Shown: piece after piece, positions 2,330 to 20,000 of the stretch
How the letters are laid out: each line of letters begins with the position of its first letter
Position numbering within the stretch: the first letter of the stretch is position 1
Source of the DNA: an uncultured virus (IMG/VR IMGVR_UViG_3300027751_000012)
Taxonomy: Duplodnaviria > Heunggongvirae > Uroviricota > Caudoviricetes
Virus record (IMG/VR): IMGVR_UViG_3300027751_000012
Length of the DNA: 20,000 bases
Direction: 5' to 3' (one strand)
The notes under the pieces: generated by a model
The model's input: the letters and a program-made list of their open reading frames with translations, nothing else
What the model was told of the DNA's origin: nothing
The model's database searches: none
Made by a program: the position numbers and the translations under genes

Positions 2330-2343
2330 TTTTCTCCTACCTT

Positions 2344-2352
2344 ATTCTACCA
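2344..2352 (-). promoter_or_regulatory. Extended -10 promoter TGGTAGAAT
   Basis: TGn-TAnnnT 14 nt upstream of ATG 2329; same motif recurs upstream of many genes in the window. Confidence 0.65.
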
Positions 2353-2357
2353 TACTA

Positions 2358-3902: not shown

Positions 3903-3910
3903 AGAATCCC

Positions 3911-4987: not shown

Positions 4988-5016
4988 GGTTAGTTCTCCT
5001 AATAGATATCTAACCT

Positions 5017-5025
5017 ATTATACCA
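5017..5025 (-). promoter_or_regulatory. Extended -10 promoter TGGTATAAT
   Basis: Perfect TGnTATAAT upstream of the SD of 3911..4987. Confidence 0.7.
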
Positions 5026-5163
5026 TTAGTTGAAGGACATTTTGCTTTTTTCATGCTTGTCTAATGGTCCACAAGCATTACAGCTATAAGCCTTAATTCC
5101 AGTCACTGGGCATTGATTTATTGATACCTTATGCCCTCTTAACTTACATAGAAGTGCTTTCAT
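5026..5163 (-). CDS. Small Cys/His protein, 45 aa, DUF1660-like putative Zn-binding
   Basis: Below the ORF-track cut-off. MKALLCKLRGHKVSINQCPVTGIKAYSCNACGPLDKHEKSKMSFN; ATGA overlap with the oxygenase stop; fills the gap exactly; C-x3-GH...CxxCG pattern. Confidence 0.75.
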   Translation of the reverse strand: MKALLCKLRGHKVSINQCPVTGIKAYSCNACGPLDKHEKSKMSFN

Positions 5164-5825: not shown

Positions 5826-5858
5826 TCCTCCTCCATTCTACTGTAATTATATAAAACA

Positions 5859-5867
5859 ATTATAGCA
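5859..5867 (-). promoter_or_regulatory. Extended -10 promoter TGCTATAAT (second TATAAT at 5846-5851)
   Basis: Motif match in the intergenic gap upstream of the oxygenase. Confidence 0.6.
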
Positions 5868-5877
5868 TAAAGGTTTA

Positions 5878-6723
5878 CTATACAGCACGTACTCTTGGCG
5901 TAAAGGAAAATGGAACAAAGTTGAATGGTGTAAATGCAAAGTTTCCAAATGGAACAAAGTTGAATGGTGTAAATGCAAAGTTGTTGAATGGTACAAAGCT
6001 AAATGGCACGAAGCTAAAGTTTCCGAATGGCACAAAGCTAAATGGTACAAAGCCAAAGTTTCCAAATGGTACAAAGCTAAATGGAGTAAATCCAAAAGTA
6101 GTTATGCTTGCTGAATTTGCAGAATAAACTCCAACACCATTGGCGTTTTCAGCACGTACCTGATAGGTTTGAGCAGTTCCACCCTCTTGATCTACGGTAA
6201 CAGAGTTAGATGTTGTAGTTCCAGTCTTTCCATCTGAAGATGTCCATGTATACTGAGTTATGGCACTACCACCGCTTGTTGGAGTGGTCCAGCTTACAAC
6301 ATCCTGGCTTGCTCCAGTAACGTTAGTTCCAGCTGATGGTACTGGTGTGGTAACTGTTGGTGCCGAAGGAGTTGCTGGCACTGTTGTGACTACAAGCTGA
6401 CCACCATCAGCTACAGGAGAGTCGCCTGAGGCATTTGTAGCAATCATTGTAACAAATGTGTCTACGGCAGAAGCTAGGCCCTCTACGACGATTGGAGAAG
6501 AAGATCCAGATGCAGTCCTAGTTGGCTCACCACTCTGTGTTGCTGTAACTGTATAGGATGTTGCAGCAGGAGAATTAGCAGGCAATGAGAAGCTTACGGA
6601 AACCGCACCATTGTTGTATGGACGGTCAGTCACGTTGCTTGGTGTTACGCTAATGGGTGCCAGTGGCTCCAAAAAGTCGTTAGAGCTCTGTGAGTTTGCA
6701 CCCAGATTTTTTCCAATTGCCAT
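5878..6723 (-). CDS. Virion-associated protein with two fibronectin type III domains and a C-terminal Phe/Pro-rich repeat
   Basis: VSVSF...SYTVTA...VEGL...ATNASG and VSW...GGSAITQY...YQVRAENANG FN3 signatures; AGGAG SD; FxF[TV]P repeats at the C-terminus. Confidence 0.85.
   Translation of the reverse strand: MAIGKNLGANSQSSNDFLEPLAPISVTPSNVTDRPYNNGAVSVSFSLPANSPAATSYTVTATQSGEPTRTASGSSSPIVVEGLASAVDTFVTMIATNASGDSPVADGGQLVVTTVPATPSAPTVTTPVPSAGTNVTGASQDVVSWTTPTSGGSAITQYTWTSSDGKTGTTTSNSVTVDQEGGTAQTYQVRAENANGVGVYSANSASITTFGFTPFSFVPFGNFGFVPFSFVPFGNFSFVPFSFVPFNNFAFTPFNFVPFGNFAFTPFNFVPFSFTPRVRAV
5896..6096 (-). repeat. 39-bp (13-aa) coding tandem repeat, FxF[TV]P-FxFVP-F[GN]N, about 5 units
   Basis: 67 aa with 11 FxF[TV]P pentapeptides; exact 36-bp duplication at 5908-5943 and 5947-5982. 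Confidence 0.95.
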
Positions 6724-6753
6724 GCTAATTATCTCCTGTCGTAATTTTAGTTA

Positions 6754-8409
6754 TTAAGCTGATGTGTCACCAAAGACTAGCCAGTTGTTAGCTCCACGCT
6801 TTAGCAGAGTAACAGATGACCACTGTGCACGTAGCTTTAGCCCTGGAGTTGCATTAACTGTAACTCCTACTTCACCTGCGATGGTGACCTGGCCAGTACC
6901 AGTCTGAATTACATCTAGAGTAGTACCTACTGGGAAGTCTAAAGTTGCATCTGTTGGAATCGTCAAAGTTGTTGCAGATGAGCTGTTTACCTCAACAATT
7001 GTATCACGCTCTGTAGTTGCAGATAGTGTGTATGATGCGGTCTTCTCAGAGATTGGGGTAATTGAAGGCACTCCAACCTTTGTCTGGGTTCCATCTGTGA
7101 ACACAACACCAGCCACCTCAACATTGTTGACTGCTAGGTCATCGAGTGATCCTTGACCAAAGTTAATCGTTGTGCTTGGCTCATCTGTAACGCCCTTGAA
7201 TAGTTTCCAGATGCCCTCAGAAGAGTCACGGACAATACCTGAGTGTTGGTAGATTCCGTCATCAAACGAACCTACAAGACCTAGGTCTGCAGTGTTTCCT
7301 GTTGAACCCTCACCAATGTAAATCATTGGGTCATTTACGACTAGGTCCTGTGTGCTAACTGTGGTGGTAGTACCAGATACTGTGAAGTTTCCAGCAACTG
7401 TAATATCTCCATCAAATGTCTGGGCTACTGCACTTAGGAGTGCTAGGTCTGATGTATCAGCAATTCCGTGAACATTTGTGGTGACTGCAGCGTGAGCTAC
7501 AATCTCTCCATCTGCGTGCCCCTCAGCAGCTGTTTGTGCTGTTGCTGCAGATCCTGCTGCATCGTAGTTAGAGGCTAGTCCATCTGCATATGTCTGTGCA
7601 GCTGTCTGAGCTGTGGAGACATCTGAAGTAGTTGCCAAAAGTGATGTATCTGCAATACCGTGGACAGATGTTGTCTCTGCATTGTGGCTTGTTACTGCTG
7701 AGGATGCTGCTCCTGCCGAATCATAGTTGCTGGCAAGACCATCTGCGTAAGCTTCTGCCGTTGCCTCGGCTGCTGCCTGGGCATCGGAGACGTTAGTGGT
7801 TGTTGCAAGTACAGTCGTGTCTGCAATACCGTGAACATTTGCAGTTAGTACGCTAAATGCAGCAATAGCGGCATCTCTGTCAGTAACTTCCTGGGCAATT
7901 GCTGCATCGGCATCGTCTACTCTTCCAGAAAGTGTAGTAACGTCTGCTTCTACAGCAGTAATTTGCAAGTTTGCAGAGTCAATGTTTGACTGTAGGGTTG
8001 AATCGGCTACCTCTAGGTCAGCAACAGCGTCTGCAACTTCTGTGTCAGTATAGCCGTTTGCATCTAAAAGGGTTTGTGCAATTGACCCGTTAATAGTAGT
8101 GGTTGCATCTGCCAAATCCTGAGTAAGGTTTGCAATAGAAGTTGTGTTTCCACCAACAACAGAGAAGAAGTCTGGGTTATTGTCGATAGCAGCGGCTAGC
8201 TCTTCTAGTGTATCTAGAGTAGCTGGGGCTGCTCCCAGGATTGCCGAAGCATCTGAGAATGCCTCAATGTTGCTCCATGTATTGGTGCCATCACCAATCT
8301 TAAACTTGCCAGTGTCTGTCTCGTAACCGAACTCACCTGCTGCAAGGATCGGGTTTGCAGCTGTCCATTCTGCAGCTGTACCTCTACGCTGTTGCATTCT
8401 CGTTGCCAT
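6754..8409 (-). CDS. Tail fibre protein, Mtd_N-type anchor, Ala-rich coiled-coil shaft
   Basis: MQQRRGTAAEWTAANPILAAGEFGYETDTGKFKIGDG; APATLDTLEELAAAI fibre motif; three VHGIADT repeats; C-terminal domain FPVGT...QTGTGQV...NNWLVFGD. Confidence 0.85.
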   Translation of the reverse strand: MATRMQQRRGTAAEWTAANPILAAGEFGYETDTGKFKIGDGTNTWSNIEAFSDASAILGAAPATLDTLEELAAAIDNNPDFFSVVGGNTTSIANLTQDLADATTTINGSIAQTLLDANGYTDTEVADAVADLEVADSTLQSNIDSANLQITAVEADVTTLSGRVDDADAAIAQEVTDRDAAIAAFSVLTANVHGIADTTVLATTTNVSDAQAAAEATAEAYADGLASNYDSAGAASSAVTSHNAETTSVHGIADTSLLATTSDVSTAQTAAQTYADGLASNYDAAGSAATAQTAAEGHADGEIVAHAAVTTNVHGIADTSDLALLSAVAQTFDGDITVAGNFTVSGTTTTVSTQDLVVNDPMIYIGEGSTGNTADLGLVGSFDDGIYQHSGIVRDSSEGIWKLFKGVTDEPSTTINFGQGSLDDLAVNNVEVAGVVFTDGTQTKVGVPSITPISEKTASYTLSATTERDTIVEVNSSSATTLTIPTDATLDFPVGTTLDVIQTGTGQVTIAGEVGVTVNATPGLKLRAQWSSVTLLKRGANNWLVFGDTSA

Positions 8410-8474
8410 AATTTACTTTCTCCTAATGGGGTTTTCCCAACTATACAATTATATACTGCTTTTTAAAACTATGA

Positions 8475-8930
8475 TTAGTTGTACTGATCTACAACCAACC
8501 CTCCGCTCCAAGTGTCTGCCCAGTCTGTGTCTGTAGCAGAGCCAGCATCTGTTGTCCAGTAGTATGTGCTTGTTGGTGTTCCAGCATCCATAAATATAGA
8601 TACTATAAGTCCAGTGCCATCAATTGCTGTGTCGTGAATGTGGTCTTGCAGTACTGATGCATCATCTAGCGTTGCAAGTGCAATCCACTGCTCACCACTA
8701 AAGACATGAAGCCTTTGAGACACTGTGTCTAGCCACATCTGACCATTTTCTGGGGTTGATGGTGCTGTGCTATCAACAACTGGCAAGCTAACAGAATCTA
8801 CATAACCTTTTGTTGCAATGTGCGAGTTAGCTGTTGGAGCTGACGATACAGAAACTGTTCCCTGTATTACAGCATTTCCATTTACGTAAATTCCATTTTT
8901 GACTTTAAAGTCTTTATCTGATATTGCCAT
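8475..8930 (-). CDS. Small tail-fibre-associated structural protein (paralogue of 8949..9296)
   Basis: DFKVKNG N-terminus, HIATKGYVD, STAPSTPENGQMWLD...VFSGEQW, HIHDTAIDGTG. Confidence 0.75.
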   Translation of the reverse strand: MAISDKDFKVKNGIYVNGNAVIQGTVSVSSAPTANSHIATKGYVDSVSLPVVDSTAPSTPENGQMWLDTVSQRLHVFSGEQWIALATLDDASVLQDHIHDTAIDGTGLIVSIFMDAGTPTSTYYWTTDAGSATDTDWADTWSGGLVVDQYN

Positions 8931-8948
8931 TAATAACTAGTCTCCTAC

Positions 8949-9296
8949 CTAAAGTATCTCAATAATTCTTCCAGTACCGTCAATTGCTGTGTCATGAATA
9001 TGTTCAGGAATAAAGTTTGCATCCTCTGTGGTTGCTAACAAAGTCCAATCTGAACCATTATAGACCTTTAGCCTAGGCTCTACTGGATTTGACATATCAA
9101 GCCATAGCTTTCCAGGTACTAGTGTTGATGGGGCTGTAGAATCTACTGTGGCTAAACCAAGGTTTCTAGCATATCCTACTGTTGCAGCATGATTACTTTC
9201 AGTTGGCTCAGCAGCTGATAAAGACCCAATAAAGTTTGCATCTCCTGCGACCTGCAGTCCATGCTTTATCTTAAAGTCTTCACTTGTAGTAGACAT
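8949..9296 (-). CDS. Small tail-fibre-associated structural protein
   Basis: DFKIKHG N-terminus, STAPSTLVPGKLWLD...VYNGSDW, HIHDTAIDGTG; GGAGG SD. Confidence 0.75.
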   Translation of the reverse strand: MSTTSEDFKIKHGLQVAGDANFIGSLSAAEPTESNHAATVGYARNLGLATVDSTAPSTLVPGKLWLDMSNPVEPRLKVYNGSDWTLLATTEDANFIPEHIHDTAIDGTGRIIEIL

Positions 9297-9319
9297 TACA
9301 GCCCCATCCTCCTATTTAA

Positions 9320-10981
9320 TTATACTAGCAGAGTTCCTACAACAGTAACATCGGAATTATTGTTAAGTGTTGTTACAAGAAGCTCTACGTCTGTTCCGTT
9401 CATTAATGCAGTAACAGTTGCAAGCGATCCGTTAGTTCCAACCATTGCATATTCTGTAATTGCAATGTTGTCAGCTGTATCTAGAGTAATTAGAACCTCA
9501 GATACTTCTGTGTGAACACCAGAAGCAACCTTTACCAGGAACTTAGCTGTTCTGTATGCAGTTCCAGAGAATCCGTAGCCAACTACCTGGCTAGCAGTTG
9601 CAACATTCTGAGTTGCAGCTACCTGTAGTGCAACGGAGTTTACATCCACTGCCTCGTAGGTTGGTGTTGCAGTTGCGTCACCAGTTGCTACTAGGGTGTC
9701 TGCATAGCCCTCAGCTGCAGTCTGAGCTGCGGTAGCCTTGCTAGATGCATCCGATGCTGCAGTAGAGATTGCTTCTGACTTAGCAGTTGCAATGTCTGAA
9801 GCTACGGCTGCCTGAGCACGTGCATTGGTGAAGTAAAGGTTGGTAACACCTTCAGCTAGGTCATCAGTGTCAGAATCTGCAACACCGTTCTCTGCTGTAA
9901 TTGTTAGACCAGCACCGTCACCAGTGATTGTAATGTTAGTTAGTGATGCACCAGTTAGAAGTGATGCAGCATCTGTCTGTGCCTTTGCAGTTGTGTAGTA
10001 CTCGTTTGTACCCTCAGCTACATCGTCAGTTGTTAGAGCATCGATAGTTCCGTTGATGGTTGTCTCAATGCCGTCTGCGTATAGCTCTGCTGCTGCCTGA
10101 GCATCGTCAACGTACTTCTTAGTAGCAGCGTGTAGATCTACTGTTGGAGCACCAGATAGAGTTAGTGCACCAGTCATGGTGTCGCCAGACTTACTTACCT
10201 TAGTACCGATCTCGGTGGTTAGGTTAGTGATTACATCTGGGTTATCACCAAGGGCTGCAGCTAGCTCATTTAGAGTATCTAGTGTAGCTGGAGCAGAATC
10301 TACAAGGTCAGCGACTGCACTTGCAATCCTGTCTGTAATAGTGTTTCCGCCCGTGCCATCTACTGTGCCATCACCGATTAGGCTGTCTGTGTAGGTGTTT
10401 GCATTAGATTCTGCTGTATCTGCATAGCCCTGAGCAGCAGAGTCTAGTGTACCAATCTCACCGTCTGTATAGCTGTTGGCAGCAGTGATTGCATCTGCCT
10501 CAGCTGTATCTGCATAGGCCTTTAGAGATGTGTCAAGAGTTGTGATCTCGCCATCTGTGTAGGTGTTTGCGTTAGACTCTGCGGTGGCTGCTGAACCTGC
10601 TGCATCGTAAGCTGCATTGGTAGCATCTAGTGCACGCTGGTCAGTGAAGTACTGGTTTGTAGTACCCTCTGACAGGCTGTCTGTATCGTGGTTAGAAATG
10701 TCTGATACTGTACCAGTTACGTCACCACTTACATCACCAGTTAGATCTCCAACAAATCCCTGATCTGCTGTAATCTCGTTTGCTGTAAAGTCTCCATTGG
10801 CGTCACGAAGTACTAGCGTATCTGGAGTGTTTGTAGAAACACCAGAACCACCAACCTGTGCGATAATGTAGTTTACGTCTGCCGAACTCTTTGTAAGAAT
10901 GTCGAATGTATTTACTGTTGCTGTTGTACCTTCAACTACAAGACCGTGTTTGATCTTAAAGTTTTTGTTTACTGTTGCCAT
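9320..10981 (-). CDS. Long tail fibre / structural protein
   Basis: NFKIKHG N-terminus; three TDxxxEGxxNxY[FY]T repeats; APATLDTLNELAAALGDNP; GDTMTGAL; HAATKKYVD; C-terminal YRTAKFLV...TEYAMV domain. Confidence 0.85.
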   Translation of the reverse strand: MATVNKNFKIKHGLVVEGTTATVNTFDILTKSSADVNYIIAQVGGSGVSTNTPDTLVLRDANGDFTANEITADQGFVGDLTGDVSGDVTGTVSDISNHDTDSLSEGTTNQYFTDQRALDATNAAYDAAGSAATAESNANTYTDGEITTLDTSLKAYADTAEADAITAANSYTDGEIGTLDSAAQGYADTAESNANTYTDSLIGDGTVDGTGGNTITDRIASAVADLVDSAPATLDTLNELAAALGDNPDVITNLTTEIGTKVSKSGDTMTGALTLSGAPTVDLHAATKKYVDDAQAAAELYADGIETTINGTIDALTTDDVAEGTNEYYTTAKAQTDAASLLTGASLTNITITGDGAGLTITAENGVADSDTDDLAEGVTNLYFTNARAQAAVASDIATAKSEAISTAASDASSKATAAQTAAEGYADTLVATGDATATPTYEAVDVNSVALQVAATQNVATASQVVGYGFSGTAYRTAKFLVKVASGVHTEVSEVLITLDTADNIAITEYAMVGTNGSLATVTALMNGTDVELLVTTLNNNSDVTVVGTLLV

Positions 10982-11004
10982 TTTGATTATCTCCTAATAA
11001 AAGA

Positions 11005-11451
11005 TTAAGCTTTTAGTCCCATGCGAGCGTATCGCACGGTAACAGGCTTAATGACTGCGTCTGGGGTAACTGTAACTGCTACAGTGTCGCCAGTCCTAGA
11101 GACATCAATGGTGCCCATATTCCCATCATTGTCTATTGTGCCATACTCGCTGACTGAAACGTTTGTTCCATCAACTAGTACGGTCAACTCTGTTGCGTAG
11201 AATTTATTATCCCCTTCTGTGGTCTTGGAGATAGAAATGATGTACTTCACCATTCTCCAGACAGTAGCATCGAAGCTGTCTACTACGGTAGGGTTTTCAA
11301 CTCCAGAAATGGTGCTCTCGTTATTTCCAGAGGTACCGAGGTCGGTTGCCTGACCTGCAGCGGTATCAATCAGATCTTCGTAATCTGCTTGTTCTGGACG
11401 ATCTCCAGTCTCGAAGCGTGTCTTAATATAAGGGATAGATGTTCTTGCCAT
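11005..11451 (-). CDS. Structural protein sharing the C-terminal domain type of 9320..10981
   Basis: FETGDRPEQADYEDLID N-terminal motif; WRMVKYII...SEYGTI aligns by eye with YRTAKFLV...TEYAMV; leaderless start. Confidence 0.75.
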   Translation of the reverse strand: MARTSIPYIKTRFETGDRPEQADYEDLIDTAAGQATDLGTSGNNESTISGVENPTVVDSFDATVWRMVKYIISISKTTEGDNKFYATELTVLVDGTNVSVSEYGTIDNDGNMGTIDVSRTGDTVAVTVTPDAVIKPVTVRYARMGLKA

Positions 11452-11457
11452 GTACTA

Positions 11458-11466
11458 ATTATAGCG
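11458..11466 (-). promoter_or_regulatory. -10 promoter (CGCTATAAT) for a leaderless mRNA
   Basis: TATAAT exactly 6 nt before ATG 11451; no SD. Confidence 0.65.
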
Positions 11467-11481
11467 GCATTTTAAACAAAA

Positions 11482-11706
11482 CTATAAAACATAGTTGCTG
11501 TAGCCAATGATGGCGATGCCGATAGGAGCTGGGTTGTTGGGGCCATAAGCATTAATTCCAATAGTTGTAAACTTTACACGAAATGGAAGAAAATCTACAA
11601 CTTTTGCATTATATTTATCGTCATATACTTTTGACGTATGGCCATTTACTTTGTTTATGTAGACAAGCTTTTGGCCTATAACATTAGTTATGACCGCCTT
11701 TGCCAT
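11482..11706 (-). CDS. Hypothetical protein, 74 aa, translationally coupled to the upstream adaptor
   Basis: TAATG 1-nt overlap with 11706..12107; fills the gap. Confidence 0.7.
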   Translation of the reverse strand: MAKAVITNVIGQKLVYINKVNGHTSKVYDDKYNAKVVDFLPFRVKFTTIGINAYGPNNPAPIGIAIIGYSNYVL

Positions 11707-12107
11707 TAGTTTGTTACATCCTCAATCACTACGACTTTGCCCTGGGCAACAGTCCAAACTTTTGCATCTTGTGCAGTCCTAAGCTCAATGTCAAATATGT
11801 CCCCAGTTTCTAGCTGTGAAGACTCTGCTGCTGTGAGGGAAACCGTAAACTCTCCTGCTGCATCATCTGGGTCTTGGGCTGGCTCTAGAGTTAGTACGAT
11901 AGTTGCTGCATCGGTTATTACGCCAGCATCAGATGGGCTTGAGGGCCTCTTGATTTCCATGTCAATAGTCCAGTCTGGAATGTTCAGTGGGGACTTTGCG
12001 TCATCCGTAACATAAACCTTGAATGCTGCAGTATCTCCACGGACTACCGTCCATGTTACTTGTGGTGGGGCGTTACCAACGCTATACCCTGAGTTTCTTG
12101 TGGCCAT
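11706..12107 (-). CDS. [RK]GDT-type beta-sandwich virion adaptor (BppU-N/LtfC-like), paralogue 1
   Basis: WTVVRGDT...FDIEL...VWTVAQGKVVVIEDVT; similar to 15349..15708 and 17026..17412. Confidence 0.75.
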   Translation of the reverse strand: MATRNSGYSVGNAPPQVTWTVVRGDTAAFKVYVTDDAKSPLNIPDWTIDMEIKRPSSPSDAGVITDAATIVLTLEPAQDPDDAAGEFTVSLTAAESSQLETGDIFDIELRTAQDAKVWTVAQGKVVVIEDVTN

Positions 12108-12113
12108 AAAGTA

Positions 12114-12151
12114 ATTATACCATATACTTTTAGAGAATTAGGTGGTATAAT
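12114..12151. promoter_or_regulatory. Back-to-back extended -10 promoters: TGGTATAAT on - (12114-12122) and on + (12143-12151)
   Basis: Two perfect TGGTATAAT in divergent orientation; the minus copy is 6 nt from ATG 12107. Confidence 0.75.
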
Positions 12152-12208
12152 TGTAGGAATAAACGACGGCACCCCTAAAAAGGTGCTTTTCCTTTTAGGG
12201 GGATAAAA

Positions 12209-12805
12209 ATGGTAATTAGCAATAATAAAGTTTTAAGAACAGCAGGACTCACAGGAATTATTCTTCTTGGAATGACAGAATGTGCAATGATTGGAGATCT
12301 GTCCGCTGTTGCAGATACCCCAAAAACACAAACACTAAATGTTCCCACTACCTCAATGGATATTATTGAAATAGTAATAGAATCTAAGCGATTTATGAGA
12401 GCTATGCCAGAAATTGTTGAAGTAGCCCCATGGCTTAAGCCAGAGATGCAGTCAATTATGCTATCCGACTCTGAGCTTATCTCAGTACTAAAGCAGGCTG
12501 GTTTTTCTGGTAACGGTTTACGAATGGCTTGGGCCATTGTAAGGGCAGAGTCTACATCTAGAGTATATGCTCACAATAGAAACAGAAATACTGGAGATAA
12601 CTCTTATGGTCTTTTTCAAATCAACATGATTGATGGCCTTGGCCCAGCTAGACTTGAAAAATATGGTCTAGAAAAAAATGAAGACTTGTTTACCCCATTA
12701 GTAAATGCTCAAGTTGCTTTTAAGATTTCTGCTGGTGGAACCAATTGGGGTGCTTGGACAACACATAAAAAAGCACAATCAAATGTTTCTAGCTTTCCTG
12801 GCTAG
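12209..12805 (+). CDS. Lysozyme-like / SLT-fold transglycosylase with N-terminal hydrophobic segment
   Basis: AWAIVRAES (catalytic Glu), GDNSYGLFQIN, NAQVA, GGTNWGAW; AGGGGG SD. Confidence 0.85.
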   Translation: MVISNNKVLRTAGLTGIILLGMTECAMIGDLSAVADTPKTQTLNVPTTSMDIIEIVIESKRFMRAMPEIVEVAPWLKPEMQSIMLSDSELISVLKQAGFSGNGLRMAWAIVRAESTSRVYAHNRNRNTGDNSYGLFQINMIDGLGPARLEKYGLEKNEDLFTPLVNAQVAFKISAGGTNWGAWTTHKKAQSNVSSFPG

Positions 12806-12806
12806 A

Positions 12807-14294
12807 TTAAATATCTTCCCAGGTACTGCCGTTAAATCTTTTTGCAACTGTTAGGTCTGTCCACGAGCTACCATCATACCTTTTATAAATTGTAATTGGT
12901 GTTGAGCTAGAAGATCCAGTCATTCTGTTACCACCATTCAACAATGCTGAGTCAACAGTAATCGTAAATGTTTTCTGTGCAGTATCTACCGAGTTTGATG
13001 CATAAATTGTAAAGGTAGAAACTCCTGGTGAAGTTGGTGTTCCATATACCCTCCCATTACTAAAATACATACCTGCTGGCAATACTCCAGAATAGGACCA
13101 TGATGTGACATTTGATGCAGATACGGAGTCATCATAAAACACTCCTACTGTTGCAAAAGCAGAAAGGCTTTGATCAATCCATGATGGTGCTGGTAGTGAA
13201 GAAATTATAATTGAAAAGCCCTGCGTTGTAGGGTTAGTAATATTTTCTGCCCTAAGATCAAATGAGTACGTTCCAGCAGTAGTTGGTGTGCCACTTACAT
13301 AAAAGTATTCGCCGCTTGCATTTCCAGAAAGCCCTGGTGGCAAAGATCCAGAGCTTATTGTTATTGGTCCATATGCAGTGTCATGCCCAGTTGCCCTAGC
13401 ATAGTCTTGTGTATAGGTTGTATTAACTTGACCAGAATTAAAACTTCCAGACCAAGTTGGTGCTGGTACTGGTGGAGCTCCAGACTCTGTAGTTGCAGAT
13501 GCAGATGATGACCAGGGTCCAGTAGAATCTGACACAACGCTTCTAATCGTATTGTCATAGGCTGCTACTCTAAAATTATAGGCGACCCCAGCCTCAAGTC
13601 CTGTTACTGATACTCCCGTTAAAGGATATCCGCTTGTGCTGGTAAAGGTTGTCCATGCAGCGTCTACCGCTTTTTTATACTGAATAGTATATCCATCTGC
13701 TGATGTCGCTACCCCCGATGCTGCCACTTGTGAAAATGTAACATTAACACTGTTTTGTCCAGTTGTAGACGCAGCAATTTGTGATGGTGCATTTGGTAGA
13801 CCATAATAGTCAAGCGACAGGTATTGCTGAGAATTTGCAGATTCAACTGAGTTTGCATAAACACTATCGCCTGGACTAGTGCCAGGAGCCGTTCTAGTAC
13901 TCATAACTCCAGAAGTGCTAGTGGCAAGTGCTCCAGCATAGTATTCTGTTGTGCTTCCAAGAACTGCATCTGCACTACCTGCAAAATATGCGTATCCGCT
14001 ACCTAAGCTTGCTGAGCCAGAGAAGGTATTATAGGCATTTGAGGATGCCTTGTCTGTTCCACCTGGGGTTCGCCCCATGATTACTTTGATAGTTCTTGAG
14101 CCAGAAGGGGCATCGGCATCTGCTGCTCTAGCGTATACAACTATTCGTGTAACTACGTATAGCTGTCTACTCTCTTGAGGGTTAGTGTTTCCGCCCCAGT
14201 CATCTGGAGTAAAGCTTGAAACAAGGTATCCATTGAAATCTGTTACTCGAGGTTCCCAAGAAGTGCTTGTCGTTCCATAAGTCTTAGTAGCCAT
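12807..14294 (-). CDS. Ser/Thr-rich adhesin-like tail 'head' protein: FN3 plus two He_PIG domains
   Basis: YTIQYKK...VTGLEAGVAYNFRVAAY (FN3); SGSLPPGL...SGTPTTAGTYSF and LPAGM...GTPTSPG (He_PIG); C-terminal YDGSSW...FNGSTW. Confidence 0.8.
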   Translation of the reverse strand: MATKTYGTTSTSWEPRVTDFNGYLVSSFTPDDWGGNTNPQESRQLYVVTRIVVYARAADADAPSGSRTIKVIMGRTPGGTDKASSNAYNTFSGSASLGSGYAYFAGSADAVLGSTTEYYAGALATSTSGVMSTRTAPGTSPGDSVYANSVESANSQQYLSLDYYGLPNAPSQIAASTTGQNSVNVTFSQVAASGVATSADGYTIQYKKAVDAAWTTFTSTSGYPLTGVSVTGLEAGVAYNFRVAAYDNTIRSVVSDSTGPWSSSASATTESGAPPVPAPTWSGSFNSGQVNTTYTQDYARATGHDTAYGPITISSGSLPPGLSGNASGEYFYVSGTPTTAGTYSFDLRAENITNPTTQGFSIIISSLPAPSWIDQSLSAFATVGVFYDDSVSASNVTSWSYSGVLPAGMYFSNGRVYGTPTSPGVSTFTIYASNSVDTAQKTFTITVDSALLNGGNRMTGSSSSTPITIYKRYDGSSWTDLTVAKRFNGSTWEDI

Positions 14295-14301
14295 TATCTA
14301 C

Positions 14302-15060
14302 CTACCAGAACCAGAGGTCTCCAGAGGAGGCTCCTGAAGGTGTCGCAGATTGTACATAAATCTTTGGCTGCTCACTCTTTGTATAGTAAAGATCATTATG
14401 AGTGTGCGAAGCAAGTGCCCTATCGTCAAGCTGTGATTGAATGTTACCAACTACACCGTCTAAAGCATTCAGCTCTGTGGTAGAGATTAGTGCTGATGAT
14501 GAAAACTTGCCAGCACTGTCCACAATTGCTACTGTATCTACAGAGACTGAGGAATTTATTCTGGAATCAATCTGAGGCTGTGTATAGTATCTTGAGTCAT
14601 GCAAGTGGCCATCTTTAGAGGCTAAGCTCCATCCAGACCATGTAGATGTACCTGCTGTGGTAGATCTAAAATAAAAGTTATTTGTTGCACCAGATGTATG
14701 ATATGTTTGGAATGCAGTTGAGTTAGCAAAAAATACATTTAGAATTCCAGCAGTTGTAGATGGATAGCCCAATACAACTGTAGGTGCAGATATAGAAGCG
14801 TAGACACCAGTGCTTGTGACATCATTTAGATTTTGAGACCCCAGCAGCTGTGTAATTGCCGAGACACCTGCCTGAACATTTTCCAATGCTGAAAGGGTAT
14901 CTCTAATATACCCAGCCATAGAGCTATTGAGAATTTCTTCTTCAGATGCAGGAACAGTAGTAGTTCCATAGTGATAAAGATTAAATGCTTGGCGTATGTC
15001 TGCTGACTCTGAATAGGCTGGCACCTGTGTTGGATAAAATGCACCAATTGACTCTGGCAT
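14302..15060 (-). CDS. Tail fibre stalk protein with a pyocin-knob-like domain
   Basis: NLNDVTSTGVY...AGIL.V...QTY...YFR...WSGW knob pattern; HLHDSRYYT and HTHNDLYYT motifs; ends YVQSATPSGASSGDLWFW. Confidence 0.8.
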   Translation of the reverse strand: MPESIGAFYPTQVPAYSESADIRQAFNLYHYGTTTVPASEEEILNSSMAGYIRDTLSALENVQAGVSAITQLLGSQNLNDVTSTGVYASISAPTVVLGYPSTTAGILNVFFANSTAFQTYHTSGATNNFYFRSTTAGTSTWSGWSLASKDGHLHDSRYYTQPQIDSRINSSVSVDTVAIVDSAGKFSSSALISTTELNALDGVVGNIQSQLDDRALASHTHNDLYYTKSEQPKIYVQSATPSGASSGDLWFW

Positions 15061-15061
15061 A

Positions 15062-15349
15062 TTACACCGCCCCTAGATTAAGATCAATGAGCTGAGCCCA
15101 ATCTTCTGTTCCTGGACCTGTCTTCTGGTACATTACCCTATAATCATCTTCGACTGGAGATGTTACGATTACAATGTCAAATAGAATTACACCGTCTGGC
15201 TTTGTTGTTGTCGCCAATCTTGGATCTGCAGAGATACCAAAAATTCTAGTGCCTCGTGTTCCCTGTGGCCCATAGTTGATATCAACATTCTTTGTGGTTA
15301 CCCCACCAACAACAACAACATCGATAGCTGATACATCAATATTTGGCAT
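15062..15349 (-). CDS. Hypothetical structural protein with a vestigial collagen motif
   Basis: GPQGTRG; TAATG overlap with the upstream adaptor. Confidence 0.7.
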   Translation of the reverse strand: MPNIDVSAIDVVVVGGVTTKNVDINYGPQGTRGTRIFGISADPRLATTTKPDGVILFDIVIVTSPVEDDYRVMYQKTGPGTEDWAQLIDLNLGAV

Positions 15350-15708
15350 TATGGTGCCTCGCTTACCTGCTCTGTCACAGATATAGTGCCAGTGAGGAGA
15401 GTGTGTACTAGTGGGTAGTCTGTAGCATCTAGGTCATTAATCTCTACGTCATATACGTATGATGTTGCCTCAGCAAGAACAGCTGAGTCTGATGGAGTAA
15501 TTGCACAGCGAATGTGGTCTGACTGGACAGAGCTATATGCTACAACTCTATTTGCTACTCCGTCTGCTCCACGTGAAGTAGAGATAGTAAAAATTGATTC
15601 ATACGGTGTCAGGTCAAATACGTTGCCTGCAGAATCTTTGGGGTATACGTTAAACTCAAAGGTGTCCCCTTTGTAGTACGAAAAGTTATAAGTTCCTGGA
15701 AATGCCAT
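15349..15708 (-). CDS. [RK]GDT-type virion adaptor, paralogue 2
   Basis: YYKGDTF...YVYDVEI...TLLTGTISVTEQVS; leaderless start. Confidence 0.75.
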   Translation of the reverse strand: MAFPGTYNFSYYKGDTFEFNVYPKDSAGNVFDLTPYESIFTISTSRGADGVANRVVAYSSVQSDHIRCAITPSDSAVLAEATSYVYDVEINDLDATDYPLVHTLLTGTISVTEQVSEAP

Positions 15709-15714
15709 ACTAGT

Positions 15715-15723
15715 ATTATAGCA
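15715..15723 (-). promoter_or_regulatory. Extended -10 TGCTATAAT, leaderless
   Basis: 6 nt before ATG 15708. Confidence 0.7.
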
Positions 15724-15725
15724 CG

Positions 15726-16442
15726 TTAACTTACAGAAATAGTTATGCTTTTAGGAATAAAGATACAGTTGTTGTCTGAACGAACCAATGGCAAAATACC
15801 GTCTGCCCTGTCGGCTTCATTGTCTATTGTCAGATGCTGTGTGACTGAAAAGTTGTAGTCATACTCATACTTTAGCAAAGCTACGAATGATGTATATTCT
15901 TTTTTAGATGCTGGAAACTGACTTTGAATCCAGATCTCGGTATTTGATGAAAGTGTAGATATATCAAAATTATAAGTTATTGAAACTTGTGATCCTATTT
16001 CTAGGTGCTTAGTATTAATTCTTTTTGCAGAAGTGTTATACAAAGATACGGAGTTTCTTGGCAAAAACTTTTCTACTGTGTCTTTACCATTGCCATCTAC
16101 AGAAAAAGATACCCAGCCGTCTACTCCACGATTAGACCCTAGGGCTAGCTGTTTAAGATCTTTGTGCGAGTATCTTGCCCATCCAGAATCTTGTCCGTAA
16201 ACAGGCATGTAGCTAATGCCATCTTTACCAGCTGGACCAGGCTCACCCTTTGGACCTTTTTTGCCTTCTTTTCCTTCGGCACCTGCTGGACCAATGTCTC
16301 CTCTTGGGCCCTGTGGGCCTGCTGGACCTGGTACGGCTATATACTGTGGACCATCTGTGGGAATTGCTCCCTTAGATGGTGTTGCCTCTTTTTCATAAGG
16401 AGATTTTTTTCTTACAATTGGAAACTCTACATCACTTGCCAT
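15726..16442 (-). CDS. Collagen-like protein (12 GXY triplets) with a C-terminal globular domain
   Basis: GPAGPQGPRGDIGPAGAEGKEGKKGPKGEPGPAGKD. Confidence 0.85.
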   Translation of the reverse strand: MASDVEFPIVRKKSPYEKEATPSKGAIPTDGPQYIAVPGPAGPQGPRGDIGPAGAEGKEGKKGPKGEPGPAGKDGISYMPVYGQDSGWARYSHKDLKQLALGSNRGVDGWVSFSVDGNGKDTVEKFLPRNSVSLYNTSAKRINTKHLEIGSQVSITYNFDISTLSSNTEIWIQSQFPASKKEYTSFVALLKYEYDYNFSVTQHLTIDNEADRADGILPLVRSDNNCIFIPKSITISVS

Positions 16443-16448
16443 ATATCT

Positions 16449-16457
16449 ATTATCTCA
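16449..16457 (-). promoter_or_regulatory. Extended -10 variant TGAGATAAT, leaderless
   Basis: 6 nt before ATG 16442; one mismatch to TATAAT. Confidence 0.55.
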
Positions 16458-16459
16458 GA

Positions 16460-17026
16460 TTATTGAGATTTCAGGTACGTTCCGCTAATATGAAAGTTAT
16501 CTTCTGCTGTTAGTGAGACTGGTGTGGTAGGAGTAAACGCCTCGTCCTGTCCGTTACTAGCGGTGTAGTAAAGATTAAGCTGGCTAGACCCTGCATTTAC
16601 ATTTCCAGAAATACCATAGCTCTTACCACTAGACTGGTCATAAATGTGTCCGTCTCTAAAGTAGTACTCATCTCTTGCATTGAACGGCAAAGTTACGTAA
16701 TACTGTCCCGTTCCGAAGTTTGTGATGTTGTCGAAATCTACATTAACTGTAAAGTGTACAAGGTCTCCAATAACAATCGCTTCTCCTGCAAATAGAGGAT
16801 CTCCGTTAAATGTTGGCTGAGCTCCATCTGTTCCCCCACCTACAATATACGAAGTGATTTCTGAAACACCAGACTCTCCCTGGATTCCTTGCTCTCCTTG
16901 TGGACCCTGCTCGCCCTGTAGACCCATTGGTCCCGTTAGTCCAGTTTCACCCTGGATGCCTTGTAAGCCTCTTGGGCCTGTAGCTCCAGGTGCTCCTGGA
17001 AATGGTACGATATTAACTGTTGGCAT
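16460..17026 (-). CDS. Collagen-like tail fibre protein with a C-terminal beta-sandwich head
   Basis: About 14 GXY triplets from residue 10; GDLVHF...YYVTLPF...ISGTY C-terminal domain; TAATG overlap with the adaptor. Confidence 0.85.
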
Positions 17027-17412
17027 TATAAACTACCTCCTGTAACGTCTCCAAGTACTGAGATAGTGCCTATGACTGGAGTCCAGACGGTATCATTATC
17101 AATTGTAACTTGTAGATCAAAAGCCAATTCCGCTACGGTTTTCTTATATCCGTCTCCCCATAGCGATGTAATGTCTGCTGGTGCTACGACGTCTACGTAG
17201 CCTTCACCTGCAGTAATTTCAAGTTCATCTGTGATACCGTTTTTGTAGTCATATGCTGATGCTGCAAAATCCCATGTGGAGGTATCGTAAGCGGTTGCCT
17301 CGTCGTCTTCAAAAAATTGGATTCTAATGACTGCCGTGTCGCCTCTTACGACGTTCCACTTAATGTTGGCAGGATTAGCTCCAAAAACTTCTGGTCCGCA
17401 TGCTGATGTCAT
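17026..17412 (-). CDS. [RK]GDT-type virion adaptor, paralogue 3
   Basis: WNVVRGDT...LAFDLQV...[16 protein letters not shown]; leaderless start. Confidence 0.75.
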
Positions 17413-17418
17413 AGATAT

Positions 17419-17427
17419 ATTATAACA
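17419..17427 (-). promoter_or_regulatory. Extended -10 TGTTATAAT, leaderless
   Basis: 6 nt before ATG 17412. Confidence 0.7.
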
Positions 17428-17452
17428 TCAATAAAATAAATAAAGTCTCAGG

Positions 17453-17507
17453 AATAAAAAACTGGTACCTAGAAAGTGGGTATGAGAGACATTCTAAGTA
17501 CCAGTTT
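17453..17507 (-). ncRNA. Candidate ~55-nt single-hairpin small RNA
   Basis: Own promoter TGGTATAAT (17513-17521, -); 16-bp stem 17459-17474/17492-17507 whose one mismatch is G-U on the minus strand; 17-nt loop; U-tract at the 3' end. Confidence 0.6.
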
Positions 17508-17512
17508 AGTAT

Positions 17513-17521
17513 ATTATACCA
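17513..17521 (-). promoter_or_regulatory. Extended -10 TGGTATAAT with no downstream ORF
   Basis: Perfect motif; predicted TSS ~17506-17507 at the hairpin base. Confidence 0.65.
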
Positions 17522-17525
17522 TAAA

Positions 17526-17609
17526 GTAACAAAAGGATAACAGGGTATCAAGATATAAGAACTTTTCTTTAAATAACTACTATATAACATATTGTTATAG
17601 AACTGTTAT
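17526..17609. promoter_or_regulatory. Three RTAACA-N5-ATAACA direct-repeat boxes
   Basis: GTAACA-aaagg-ATAACA 17526-17542; ATAACT-actat-ATAACA 17573-17589; inverted copy TGTTAT-agaac-TGTTAT 17593-17609. Confidence 0.55.
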
Positions 17610-17620
17610 TAAAAAAAGAC

Positions 17621-17650
17621 TTGACAACTTACTTTTTCTGCTACTATATA
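17621..17650 (+). promoter_or_regulatory. Possible sigmaA promoter (TTGACA ... TGCTACTAT) with no downstream + ORF
   Basis: TTGACA 17621-17626; TG-C-TACTAT 17639-17647; spacing of 15 nt is suboptimal. Confidence 0.35.
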
Positions 17651-17745
17651 AAAGGGTTGATTGTTATATATATATTAATTCAAATCATCTCTAAGTAGAG
17701 TTTAGTGAATTTACTTATATTTACTTATATATTATATATATTATA

Positions 17746-18051
17746 TTAAGAGTTTCTATTAGACAAGTATTCAATCATTTTATCGTACAGATCATCTATT
17801 TTTCTTTCTAGCTTTTCCATTTTTAAGTAATTATCTTTTCTAATTGCGTCTGCTGCATCTTGTCTTTGTTCTAGACGGTTAACCTGATCTTTTATACTAC
17901 CTCCGCCGTTTGGCTTAAGCTCATGCTTAATTTCCTCTAGATAATGCTTAACCATCCATCTGATTGCGACCCCCAGCATTGTAAGAATTGATCCAATACC
18001 TACGAGTATTCCTATTGATAAATTCAGCTGGTCTAGTGGGGTCATAACCAT
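17746..18051 (-). CDS. Membrane-anchored coiled-coil protein, holin/lysis-accessory candidate (start may be ATG 18045)
   Basis: One N-terminal TM helix, ELKPNGGGSIKDQVNRLE motif, coiled coil; TATAAT at 18055-18060. Confidence 0.65.
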   Translation of the reverse strand: MVMTPLDQLNLSIGILVGIGSILTMLGVAIRWMVKHYLEEIKHELKPNGGGSIKDQVNRLEQRQDAADAIRKDNYLKMEKLERKIDDLYDKMIEYLSNRNS

Positions 18052-18096
18052 ACAATTATAAATACTTTTTATGACAATGCGGCTTAAACACTGGGC

Positions 18097-18143
18097 TGTA
18101 AGTTCGGGGTGTAAGTTCGGTTTTAAAGTTCGGTTTTAAGTCG
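18097..18143 (+). repeat. 13-bp tandem repeat with core AAGTTCGG, three copies plus a degenerate fourth
   Basis: AAGTTCGG at 18100, 18113 and 18126; AAGTCG at 18138; intergenic. Confidence 0.85.
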
Positions 18144-18192
18144 TGGCGAGAAATACTCCAACCAAAGTACACGACATATAACGTCTAAATAT

Positions 18193-18237
18193 ATAACAAA
18201 GTTATAACAAGACAACATCCGTGATGTATGGTAGAAT
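18193..18237 (+). promoter_or_regulatory. ATAACA-N5-ATAACA box (18193-18209) upstream of extended -10 TGGTAGAAT (18229-18237)
   Basis: -10 lies 6 nt before ATG 18244; the box sits at about -51 to -35. Confidence 0.65.
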
Positions 18238-18243
18238 AGATGA

Positions 18244-18450
18244 ATGGGAGATGACGTAAGCGTATTTGATTTATTTAATCCAAATGCACCCAGGTCCTCT
18301 GAGGAATTAAAAGAAGCTAGAATGGCTGTATGCCGCACTTGCGAATTCTTCCTTAAAGGATCTAAAAGGTGTAAGCTTTGCGGATGCTTCATGAATAAAA
18401 AGACAACACTAGAATTAGCAAAATGTCCTATGGGATACTGGAAGGAATAG
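18244..18450 (+). CDS. Small Cys-rich protein, DUF6171-like
   Basis: RMAVCRTCE...CKLCGCF...K......CP.GYW pattern; leaderless. Confidence 0.8.
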   Translation: MGDDVSVFDLFNPNAPRSSEELKEARMAVCRTCEFFLKGSKRCKLCGCFMNKKTTLELAKCPMGYWKE

Positions 18451-18451
18451 T

Positions 18452-18646
18452 ATGAGAAGAGAAGACGCTGTAAATCTAATGACAAAGCATGTATTGGATA
18501 TGAACAGAGGCCTGGGAGAACAGCAGGGTATCCCAGAGCAGCAAATTGTAAATACGCTTGAGCAGATGAAGCCAGAACTAGACAGGGTAAATGAACAGTT
18601 GTTCGATGTCCTGTACGAGGCTGGTATTATTAACCTACACGGTTAA
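18452..18646 (+). CDS. Hypothetical helical protein, paralogue of 19261..19461
   Basis: AAGGA SD; 18/60 identities in an ungapped alignment with 19261..19461. Confidence 0.8.
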   Translation: MRREDAVNLMTKHVLDMNRGLGEQQGIPEQQIVNTLEQMKPELDRVNEQLFDVLYEAGIINLHG

Positions 18647-19218
18647 ATCTTAAAGAACTCGTATTCGGTAAGCCAAATAGGAATGGTATATCTTTCCTCG
18701 TAGATCTCCTCTACGGAGTGTACAAATTCTAATGGCTTAGAAGGAAATGTAACTAGATCTCCCTGTACTGGACTATACTTATAATCGAGATCAGGAAAGT
18801 TTAGTTCGCCTCCAGAAGACATTGTATTAAGGTATAGTATGCCACTGTACTTGAATTGCATGTTTTTACCACCATCAGTGTCAACATGAGAGTCAATGCG
18901 TGCTCCTGGATATTGCTTTGCTAGGAAGAAGTTATTTACCATAATCTTTCTTCTATTGCCGAATACTTCTTGTATTTGCTTTTCCATCTTAGGGAATATG
19001 TCATTACGGAGCATAGGTTCTATCTCTGAGATCAAGGAGAAATCTGTTTGTGAGTCTCTATGGAATGAGTCTTTTCCAAATGATAAGAACTTTCTCCGAT
19101 CTCCGTAGATCTCACTACCCTTCATAATTTCTAGCTTGCTGTTAATATAGCTAATCAGATACTCTGACTCTTCTTTTGAGATAAAGTCCTTTAATATATG
19201 GATTTGATCAATGCTCAT
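18643..19218 (-). CDS. 2OG-Fe(II) oxygenase, prolyl-4-hydroxylase-like (191 aa; start moved from 19233 to 19218)
   Basis: HVD...YSGILYLN...GGELNF...GDLVTFPS...HSV...RYT. The track's ATG 19233 overlaps promoter TGGTAAAAT (19224-19232), which lies 5 nt before ATG 19218. Confidence 0.9.
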   Translation of the reverse strand: MSIDQIHILKDFISKEESEYLISYINSKLEIMKGSEIYGDRRKFLSFGKDSFHRDSQTDFSLISEIEPMLRNDIFPKMEKQIQEVFGNRRKIMVNNFFLAKQYPGARIDSHVDTDGGKNMQFKYSGILYLNTMSSGGELNFPDLDYKYSPVQGDLVTFPSKPLEFVHSVEEIYEERYTIPIWLTEYEFFKI

Positions 19219-19223
19219 AGTTA

Positions 19224-19254
19224 ATTTTACCATACCCTAGCGATACTGTATAAT
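19224..19254. promoter_or_regulatory. Divergent leaderless promoters: TGGTAAAAT (-, 19224-19232) and TATAAT (+, 19249-19254)
   Basis: 5 nt and 6 nt from ATG 19218 and ATG 19261 respectively. Confidence 0.65.
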
Positions 19255-19260
19255 ATAACC

Positions 19261-19461
19261 ATGTATAAAGAAGATATTATAGACATTATGTCAGAAGCGA
19301 TTGCTAAGTCCAATGAGGATCTAATGCGATACCAAGGAATGAACGATAAAGAGATATCAGAACAGCTAAATTGGAATAGACCTGCCTTGGATTATGCTAA
19401 TGAGATGGTTTTAGATGCTCTTATAGCTAATGGTGTTGTTTCTAAGGATACCGTCGAGTAA
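19261..19461 (+). CDS. Hypothetical helical protein, paralogue of 18452..18646
   Basis: Leaderless start; paralogy supports coding. Confidence 0.8.
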   Translation: MYKEDIIDIMSEAIAKSNEDLMRYQGMNDKEISEQLNWNRPALDYANEMVLDALIANGVVSKDTVE

Positions 19462-19464
19462 TTA

Positions 19465-19545
19465 TTACCCAATAAGTACTGATATCAGAGCAAATACCGT
19501 ACATATTACGGCTGTTCCTAGTACAATCTTAATCTCATCTGTCAT
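19465..19545 (-). CDS. 26-aa single-TM peptide
   Basis: MTDEIKIVLGTAVICTVFALISVLIG; TATACT (19552-19557) exactly 6 nt before the ATG; tandem TAA TAA stops. Confidence 0.55.
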   Translation of the reverse strand: MTDEIKIVLGTAVICTVFALISVLIG

Positions 19546-19761
19546 ATATCTAGTATACCCCACTTATTCTATACCTGGAAAATCTGAAAAAATCTATTTT
19601 TGGCAAAATCTGAATATTTTTTAGTTATGTATGATACACATTTACGTGAAAAAAGCAAGAAAACTTAGTCCGCACACCGTGCCACCTTTTTGTCTGATAG
19701 CCCTGCCAGATCATTGTGGATTCCTACAAAAAACACACCTAAACTTTGTAGGTAAATGTAC

Positions 19762-19798
19762 TTGACTTTTTGACATTTGTGTGTTAGAGTAATAGTAT
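19762..19798 (+). promoter_or_regulatory. Two overlapping sigmaA-type promoters
   Basis: TTGACT(19762)-N17-TAGAGT with extended TG, and TTGACA(19770)-N17-TAGTAT. Confidence 0.7.
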
Positions 19799-19841
19799 AA
19801 ATAAAGATAGATAAAAAAAGATTTCATAGAAAGGATAAAAA

Positions 19842-19985
19842 ATGATTTCAGTTTCAATTTCAATTCCAACAGGAGATTTCGCAATGTGCGAGATTTGCGA
19901 CAACTACACACCTCAGGTGTTTGTAGTAGAAGAAAAAGAAAGCGGTTGCGAATACTGCTTCGAAGCCTATGGTGAAATAAACTAG
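19842..19985 (+). CDS. 47-aa CxxC...CxxC putative Zn-binding early protein
   Basis: GAAAGGA SD; MISVSISIPTGDFAMCEICDNYTPQVFVVEEKESGCEYCFEAYGEIN; below the ORF-track cut-off. Confidence 0.75.
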   Translation: MISVSISIPTGDFAMCEICDNYTPQVFVVEEKESGCEYCFEAYGEIN

Positions 19986-20000
19986 GCTTTCTTCGGCGTG

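Follow-up and report, generated by a model that had tools for sequence, protein, structure and literature searches.

Introduction

To our knowledge, small RNAs encoded by phages are known mostly from a few enterobacterial phages. The oop RNA of phage lambda is a short transcript with its own promoter, one hairpin and a terminator, and is antisense to an overlapping gene. Intrinsic terminators, which mark the end of a transcription unit, combine a G+C-rich stem and a loop of 3-8 nt with a U-tract, and a loop of 17 nt is unusual for an efficient one. The actinobacterial phylum, to which the host discussed below would belong, is not known to have Hfq. In the section of the source drawn on here, the 6C RNA binds mRNAs through C-rich loops without chaperones (PMC6486639). 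Phage RNA decoys form another group and include the RNA anti-CRISPRs, which are small phage non-coding RNAs according to the part of that work used here (10.64898/2026.06.03.729762). PhotoRC-II, in the portions of its two descriptions relied upon, is a candidate cis-regulatory RNA of psbA with no mechanism described (PMC2864571, PMC9602691).

Here, we describe a predicted hairpin RNA on the minus strand of the window, the whole 20,000-nucleotide stretch of an uncultured virus (IMG/VR IMGVR_UViG_3300027751_000012) that was analysed. Like lambda oop, the hairpin is self-contained, with a promoter, a hairpin and a terminator; unlike it, the hairpin overlaps no opposite-strand ORF, the ORF list holding no plus-strand ORF of >=40 aa that overlaps 17453-17521. 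With an intrinsic terminator it shares a stem followed by a U-tract, yet it has in addition an invariant 17-nt loop and a promoter at the base of the stem. The C-rich apical loop on a stable hairpin recalls the actinobacterial 6C-type sRNAs, from which the RNA differs in being a single hairpin and phage-encoded; in the window, neither the 6C covariance model nor other Rfam sRNA families match at E<=1. With the RNA anti-CRISPRs, as presented in the part of the source cited above, it has in common that it is a small non-coding RNA from a phage and a possible mimic of another RNA. As to Rfam as a whole, the check suggested in the preliminary description of this locus, no family matches the hairpin, and at E<=1 the window gives only two chance-level matches elsewhere. 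Taken on its sequence evidence, the hairpin is a new, large and well-supported family of phage sRNAs with an unusual minimal architecture, outside Rfam 15.

Architecture of the Hairpin Unit

The features of the unit and of the gene that follows it are listed below, in the direction of transcription.

17526..17542, minus strand: direct repeat TGTTATC / TGTTAC, 11 nt apart, in the -35 region of P1
17513..17521, minus strand: P1, extended -10 box TGGTATAAT, read from the sequence
17506, minus strand: predicted transcription start, at the stem base, 7th nt past the -10 box
17492..17507, minus strand: stem 5' arm AAACTGGTACTTAGAA (sequence, fold, covariation)
17475..17491, minus strand: 17-nt loop TGTCTCTCATACCCACT (sequence)
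17490-17476, minus strand: 15-nt loop core GTCTCTCATACCCAC
17482-17476, minus strand: invariant TACCCAC within the loop core
17459..17474, minus strand: stem 3' arm TTCTAGGTACCAGTTT (sequence, fold, covariation)
17453..17461, minus strand: U-tract TTTTTTATT, a T run at 17461-17456, then ATT
17410..17427, minus strand: P2, TGTTATAAT at 17427-17419, 6 nt, then ATG at 17412
17026..17412, minus strand: 128-aa phrog_1084-like protein, first gene of the tail-fibre module (PHROGs)

The preliminary description had read TGGTATAAT, a 16-bp stem with one U-G pair, a 17-nt loop and a T run on the minus strand, as well as a promoter belonging to the next gene (TGTTATAAT, 6 nt before the ATG at 17412), and all of these stand. 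The spacer between TGGTATAAT and the stem is 5 nt long. The only pair in the stem that is not Watson-Crick is U-G on the minus strand and hence C-A on the plus strand, and the first three T of the U-tract double as partners of the AAA at the stem base. The prediction of the transcription start was calibrated within the window on three paralogous genes in which TGNTATAAT is followed by 6 nt and ATG. In these phrog_1084-like genes the distance from the box is exactly 6 nt (17410-17427, 15706-15723 and 12105-12122, minus strand); each of them heads a block of tail-fibre genes, and leaderless mRNAs are predicted for them. The mRNA of the gene next to the hairpin is thus predicted to be leaderless. 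The direct repeat at P1 is a candidate regulator site and, by its look, may be phage-specific. Farther 5' of P1, ATAACA repeats are found at 17593-17610 (minus strand). Other subfamilies carry TGTCC...TGTCC and TATAACGAT repeats at these two places.

The upstream gene ends ~240 nt before the hairpin. A simple terminator of that gene was considered and rejected on this distance, on the promoter at the stem base of every member and on the invariant loop of 17-21 nt. In a simple terminator scan of the window the hairpin was not called because its loop exceeds 8 nt; no tRNAs were found in the window. The same stretch holds, at 12168-12187, a hairpin that is terminator-like on both strands, between the convergent ORFs 12175-12537 (minus) and 12209-12805 (plus).

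Covariation and Strand

Folded as RNA, the minus strand of the hairpin has a minimum free energy of -22.9 kcal/mol, against -12.3 +/- 2.7 for shuffled sequences (z -3.9; none of 200 as good), whereas the plus strand, with its stem interrupted, reaches -19.3 kcal/mol (z -2.35; 5 of 200 shuffles as good). Evolutionary evidence for the stem comes from an alignment of 48 distinct hairpins, which were retrieved by the exact core, so that loop invariance among them is circular. In their 14-bp consensus helix 96.7% of the cells are paired, and both-sided (compensatory) changes occur at 14 of the 14 pairs; not one of 500 column shuffles reached the observed values, and when the partner columns were slid by 1-3 positions pairing was only 30-48%. 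The alignment contains 83 G-U/U-G pairs versus 2 A-C/C-A pairs, and the structure under selection is therefore an RNA of the window's minus strand and not a DNA cruciform. The covariance model likewise scores 47-83 bits on the hairpin strand versus 16-30 bits on the opposite strand.

The balance of G-U and A-C pairs bears directly on the reading of the hairpin as a DNA-level element, be it a cruciform, a replication origin or an inverted repeat bound by a protein, since cruciforms, which form on both strands, would not tolerate such an imbalance. The position of the hairpin in one complete relative, G005, would suit such an element: it lies at a switch between leftward and rightward gene blocks, near the minimum of the cumulative GC skew, and adjoins TATAAC repeats and divergent promoters. 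In the phage of the window, however, the divergence point is ~1.7 kb away, and we regard a DNA element as highly improbable.

The covariation also settles the coding status of the hairpin. The preliminary description had stated that there is no ORF; mechanically, this is incorrect, for a 56-aa ORF (17420-17590, minus) spans the hairpin, but the substance of the statement holds: the ORF is not coding because the relatives have insertions or deletions of 1-4 columns there, together with covarying changes in the stem. The micro-ORF MSLIPT..., which begins in the loop, was rejected as well: its start codon is lost (CCG in L019, TTG in L003), and lengths vary by numbers not divisible by three.

Family Size and Loop Variation

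The exact 17-nt loop is present in 10 viral loci. When loci were retrieved by the downstream protein alone (59-100% identity), eight out of eight carried the 15-nt core in a hairpin with different arms. An alignment-based search with the downstream protein gave more than 603 viral loci with a relative, and the best 80 of these make up a non-circular set. In 75 of the 80 the covariance model finds the hairpin directly 5' of the gene, on the plus strand of the locus; of the other five, two end at a contig edge and three are without the hairpin. The latter (L319, L336 and L339) retain the leaderless second promoter and the gene, which indicates that the hairpin RNA is dispensable in some lineages. 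In complete genomes, the hairpin is single-copy.

Among the 75 protein-ascertained hairpins, 38 have the same loop core as the window and 20 have the variant UUUGUCCUAUACCCACC; rarer forms are GUCUUAUACCCACC, GUCUCUUACCCACC, AUCUCGUAUACCCACC, GUUUUUCAUACCCACC and one with a single inserted U. The sole invariant part of the loop is UACCCAC, followed by C or U. Its 5' half keeps a pyrimidine-rich composition while its sequence drifts, and a G-U...A-C pair can close an inner loop of 6-12 nt with UACCC at its 3' end; across the family, loop length is 17-21 nt. The second variant (UUUGUCCUAUACCCACC) occurs in at least 121 further viral loci, and its 75 distinct contexts comprise 61 with hairpin and promoter and 14 due to chance. 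A conserved loop and a covarying stem were the signs that the preliminary description had proposed to look for; both are present (UACCCAC invariant, 14/14 pairs covarying), and they counter the outcome that it had set against its own reading, namely an ordinary terminator or a DNA inverted repeat.

The variation is less kind to the function first proposed for the loop, that of an antisense RNA to a start codon, pairing with ...AUG AGA GAC.... The commonest loop does have CAU, and its complement resembles a start region. Yet 28 of the 75 protein-ascertained hairpins do not have CAU at this place, 26 of them reading UAU instead and 2 CUU, and no matching start region is found in the window or in four complete relatives; nor do the four hold a promoter-linked gene that starts with GTGGGTA. 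The weak match within the window noticed earlier, GTATGAGA at 18450-18457, is indeed there and is only 8 nt long. We give pairing with a start codon very little credence.

Two loci place the motif elsewhere. On the viral contig of L028, the same 16 nt occupy the loop of the middle hairpin in a ~105-nt RNA of three hairpins with its own extended -10 box, a separate G+C-rich terminator and a different gene context; the region concerned runs from ~48 nt upstream of the core to 75 nt downstream of it. At L076, AGGAGG (Shine-Dalgarno) and an ATG come directly after the usual hairpin; the 209-aa product of this gene has no relation to the usual neighbour, and the second promoter is absent. Thus, the motif and not the neighbourhood is the constant, and this portability favours a function borne by the RNA itself.

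Beyond the viral collection, the 15-mer was found at >=120 loci, that is, at least 120, in 185,579 species genomes (596 Gb), for which our own arithmetic gives ~1000 chance matches. Among the 121 genome occurrences listed, two belong to the hairpin family (L195 and L240, both probably on phage contigs that ended up in MAG bins) and one is PhotoRC-II-like (L146). The literature searched holds no description of the hairpin RNA, which is not proof that it is unpublished. Overall, the hairpin is very likely a real, previously uncatalogued sRNA gene of hundreds of uncultured aquatic actinophages.

Promoter and Terminator Signals

The flanking signals were compared across 80 distinct members, which comprise all viral loci and the window. 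Every one of them has TGNTANNNT within 32 nt 5' of the stem, most often ending 3-7 nt before the outermost stem pair. In the 8 nt past the stem, 54 members have at least 6 T and 26 have 4-5 T; such weak U-tracts make some read-through plausible. A second TGNTANNNT lies no more than 95 nt downstream in 65 of the 80, with ATG or GTG 4-9 nt later in 58 of these. Judged by sequence only, the 80 members have both a promoter and a terminator of their own, and the unit is in all likelihood an independently transcribed hairpin RNA of ~50-55 nt.

These same signals are the ground on which a purely cis-acting role must be weighed, in which P1 and the hairpin would serve the tail-fibre operon at whose head they stand, as an insulating terminator that fixes the start of the next mRNA at its leaderless AUG, as a regulated attenuator, or through promoter interference that times the operon. 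The neighbourhood speaks for it: a phrog_1084-like gene lies directly downstream in 46 of the 47 relatives' loci of the 48-hairpin alignment, the exception being L076, and the same gene family does so in 75 of the 78 evaluable protein-ascertained loci; by a rough count, P2 follows within 5-15 nt in most members. Subfamily-specific direct repeats in the -35 region of P1 resemble regulator sites, and the weakness of the U-tract in 26 of 80 members points the same way. A plain terminator, however, needs neither a promoter at its base, as seen in 80 of 80, nor an invariant loop, and no upstream RNA is available to form an alternative antiterminator structure. The motif is, moreover, not confined to this scaffold and context (L028, L076), and at three loci P2 and the gene persist without the hairpin. 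We judge a purely cis-acting role unlikely.

Phage Context and Host

The window is the reverse complement of a 22.6-kb IMG/VR virus fragment with an estimated completeness of 20%; its last 297 bases (19704-20000) are not on the contig that carries positions 1-19703. Its minus strand bears a tail-fibre module (PHROGs); the products of 3911-4987 and 6754-8409 (minus) are tail-fibre-like proteins with a common N-terminal ~55 aa that matches many tail-fibre PHROGs. Neither local DNA nor two tail-module proteins matched a cultured relative in 50,697 phage records. Among complete relatives, those with the hairpin measure 111-125 kb and have terminal repeats. One of them, G005 (complete, 111.9 kb; L350-L355), encodes WhiB, a DnaE-type polymerase, a 3491-aa tape measure protein and six tRNAs, and has ~20 promoters that match TGNTAYAMT and lie 4-9 nt ahead of an ATG or GTG, from which leaderless mRNAs are predicted. 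G005 also carries some twelve separate genes for 2OG-Fe(II) oxygenases, a feature more familiar in cyanophages, and encodes Hsp20, a proteasome-like subunit, a PNKP phosphatase-domain protein and a 702-aa protein with an Mtd_N domain.

When compared with Streptomyces phages of 125-135 kb (Stanwilliamsviridae), the polymerase of G005 is 54% and its portal protein 48% identical. WhiB, this kinship with Streptomyces phages and the leaderless architecture jointly suggest a host among the actinobacteria, and from the ~40% G+C and the aquatic samples the host is probably a low-G+C aquatic actinobacterium. In five cultured Stanwilliamsviridae phages of Streptomyces, the covariance model found no hairpin at E<=1 (0/5), a weak negative from a first look without candidates.

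Relation to PhotoRC-II

The commonest 15-nt loop core of the family is identical, at 15 of 15 nt, to the core of the commonest form of Rfam PhotoRC-II (RF01717): GUCUCUCAUACCCAC. The 109 distinct viral contexts of this 15-mer comprise 37 of PhotoRC-II, 62 of the hairpin family and ~6 due to chance, and include 2 further hairpin rows that were script-classed as 'other'. The PhotoRC-II contexts score 55-81 bits, against a gathering score of 39. Chance contexts numbered no more than ~6-14 for a random 15-mer in these scans, and an exact 15-nt identity between two conserved phage RNAs, each in its commonest form, is very unlikely to be a coincidence.

The likeness consists of these 15 nt and of the fact that both are phage RNAs of aquatic samples; in other respects the two elements differ. 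PhotoRC-II is made of two hairpins joined by a conserved linker and lies 82-87 nt 5' of psbA on cyanophage contigs, whereas the actinophage RNA is a single hairpin followed by the gene of a phrog_1084-like tail-module protein and not by psbA. In PhotoRC-II the 15-mer is not a loop: its first 10 nt are the linker between the hairpins and its last 5 nt the 5' strand of stem 2. The fixed part also differs, being UCAUA in PhotoRC-II and UACCCAC in the hairpin family, and the second loop variant has no PhotoRC-II among its 75 contexts. The hosts belong to different phyla. Against the PhotoRC-II model, the window has no match at E<=1 and does not reach the gathering score of 39 bits. Membership of the hairpin in PhotoRC-II was thus rejected: it is a single hairpin, has no psbA and falls below the gathering score. 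PhotoRC-I (RF01716) had no match in one cyanobacterial MAG.

PhotoRC-II itself may be more structured than its Rfam entry. Two rows of the original seed alignment, in the part of the source used here, have covariation in stem 2 (PMC2864571). In the seed rows given there, the first five nt of the linker change together with the loop of hairpin 1, as GAGAC/GUCUC and GGGAU/AUCCC (PMC2864571). At L021-L026, L030, L036 and other PhotoRC-II loci, the hairpin-1 loop GAGAC is complementary to the linker GUCUC. A pseudoknot between the hairpin-1 loop and the linker, absent from the Rfam structure line, is probable from these sequences, within the very few seed rows that the cited part of the alignment provides.

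The identity admits a bolder interpretation, in which the 15-nt core is a portable RNA module of phages of two phyla that addresses one deeply conserved partner, most plausibly a part of the translation-initiation machinery, the actinophage RNA being a decoy that favours leaderless mRNAs. We consider this a long shot. Were it true, the module would be displayed as the loop of a free hairpin in actinophages and within the psbA leader in cyanophages, and the decoy would shift translation to the leaderless mRNAs of the phage; the tail-fibre operon behind the RNA starts with one.

Search for a Partner and Proposed Mechanism

An antisense target, as the preliminary description supposed, was found neither in the window nor in complete phage genomes, the downstream mRNA or 401 Actinomycetota genomes. 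In the window, the full 17-nt complement with up to 3 mismatches occurs only in the hairpin itself. In five complete phage genomes, GGTGGGTAT matches the hairpin itself and 0-3 scattered further sites per genome, and partner strands like those of PhotoRC-II were not above shuffled expectation in complete phage genomes. An ungapped complementarity scan of G005 gave a best non-self score of 25 versus maxima of 23-35 for shuffled loops, and in the downstream mRNA of 58 members the mean score was 16.7 versus 17.0 for shuffled loops. On the host side, GGUGGGUA occurs twice in Streptomyces 23S rRNA, and the duplex energy in a Streptomyces rRNA operon is -21.8 kcal/mol versus -21.0 +/- 1.9 for shuffled loops. 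The 16-mer complement with at most 1 mismatch was matched in 11 of the 401 Actinomycetota genomes, a sample that may leave the true host outside, versus 12 matches of the reversed control.

Despite these chance-level results, the model that we favour, and to which we give an even chance, is that of a stand-alone gene for a trans-acting hairpin sRNA of ~50-55 nt that would work via its loop. Host RNA polymerase, directed by the extended -10 promoter, would start right at the stem base, and the transcript would be the hairpin alone, ending in the U-tract; the next gene would be transcribed separately from its own leaderless promoter. The long covarying stem would then be a scaffold that presents a single-stranded loop of 17-21 nt, composed of a pyrimidine tract and the invariant UACCCAC(C/U), through which the RNA would act in trans. 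That the loop acts in trans we hold to be somewhat more probable than not to be the case. The favoured partner would be a G-rich single-stranded RNA with GUGGGUA in the actinobacterial host, by analogy with the C-rich apical loops of chaperone-independent Gram-positive sRNAs; even granting action in trans, such pairing is a tentative proposal, and the titration of a protein, also doubtful, is almost as likely.

In the latter case the same stand-alone transcript would be a protein decoy or aptamer, whose loop, closed by a conserved 2-bp GU/AC helix and ending in AUACCC, would titrate a protein of the host or of the phage, such as a factor of translation or RNA decay. Several observations are in keeping with it. 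The searches for an RNA target are all at chance level, in the 5' half of the loop it is the pyrimidine composition and not the sequence that is kept, and the inner GU...AC pair is found in every loop variant; many mRNAs of these phages are predicted to be leaderless, and a shift of the translation machinery might well pay. Yet no candidate protein has been identified, the upstream neighbours are not conserved between the window and G005, and the strict conservation of 7-8 nt would suit a pairing seed equally well. As an account of the whole locus, a protein decoy is possible and comes with a modest share of our confidence, below that given to the trans-acting sRNA model.

Conclusions

The hairpin adds to the biology of phages a very small RNA, reduced to promoter, hairpin and terminator, that is conserved across hundreds of uncultured phage contigs. 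Its carriers form a lineage related to Streptomyces phages that probably infects abundant low-G+C aquatic actinobacteria. Textbook covariation and a sharply defined recognition motif of 7-8 nt make it ready for experiment. The locus is, in addition, an example of phage gene expression that relies on leaderless mRNAs. Finally, the identity of 15 nt ties together two RNA elements in phages whose hosts belong to different phyla, and the partner of one could explain the other.
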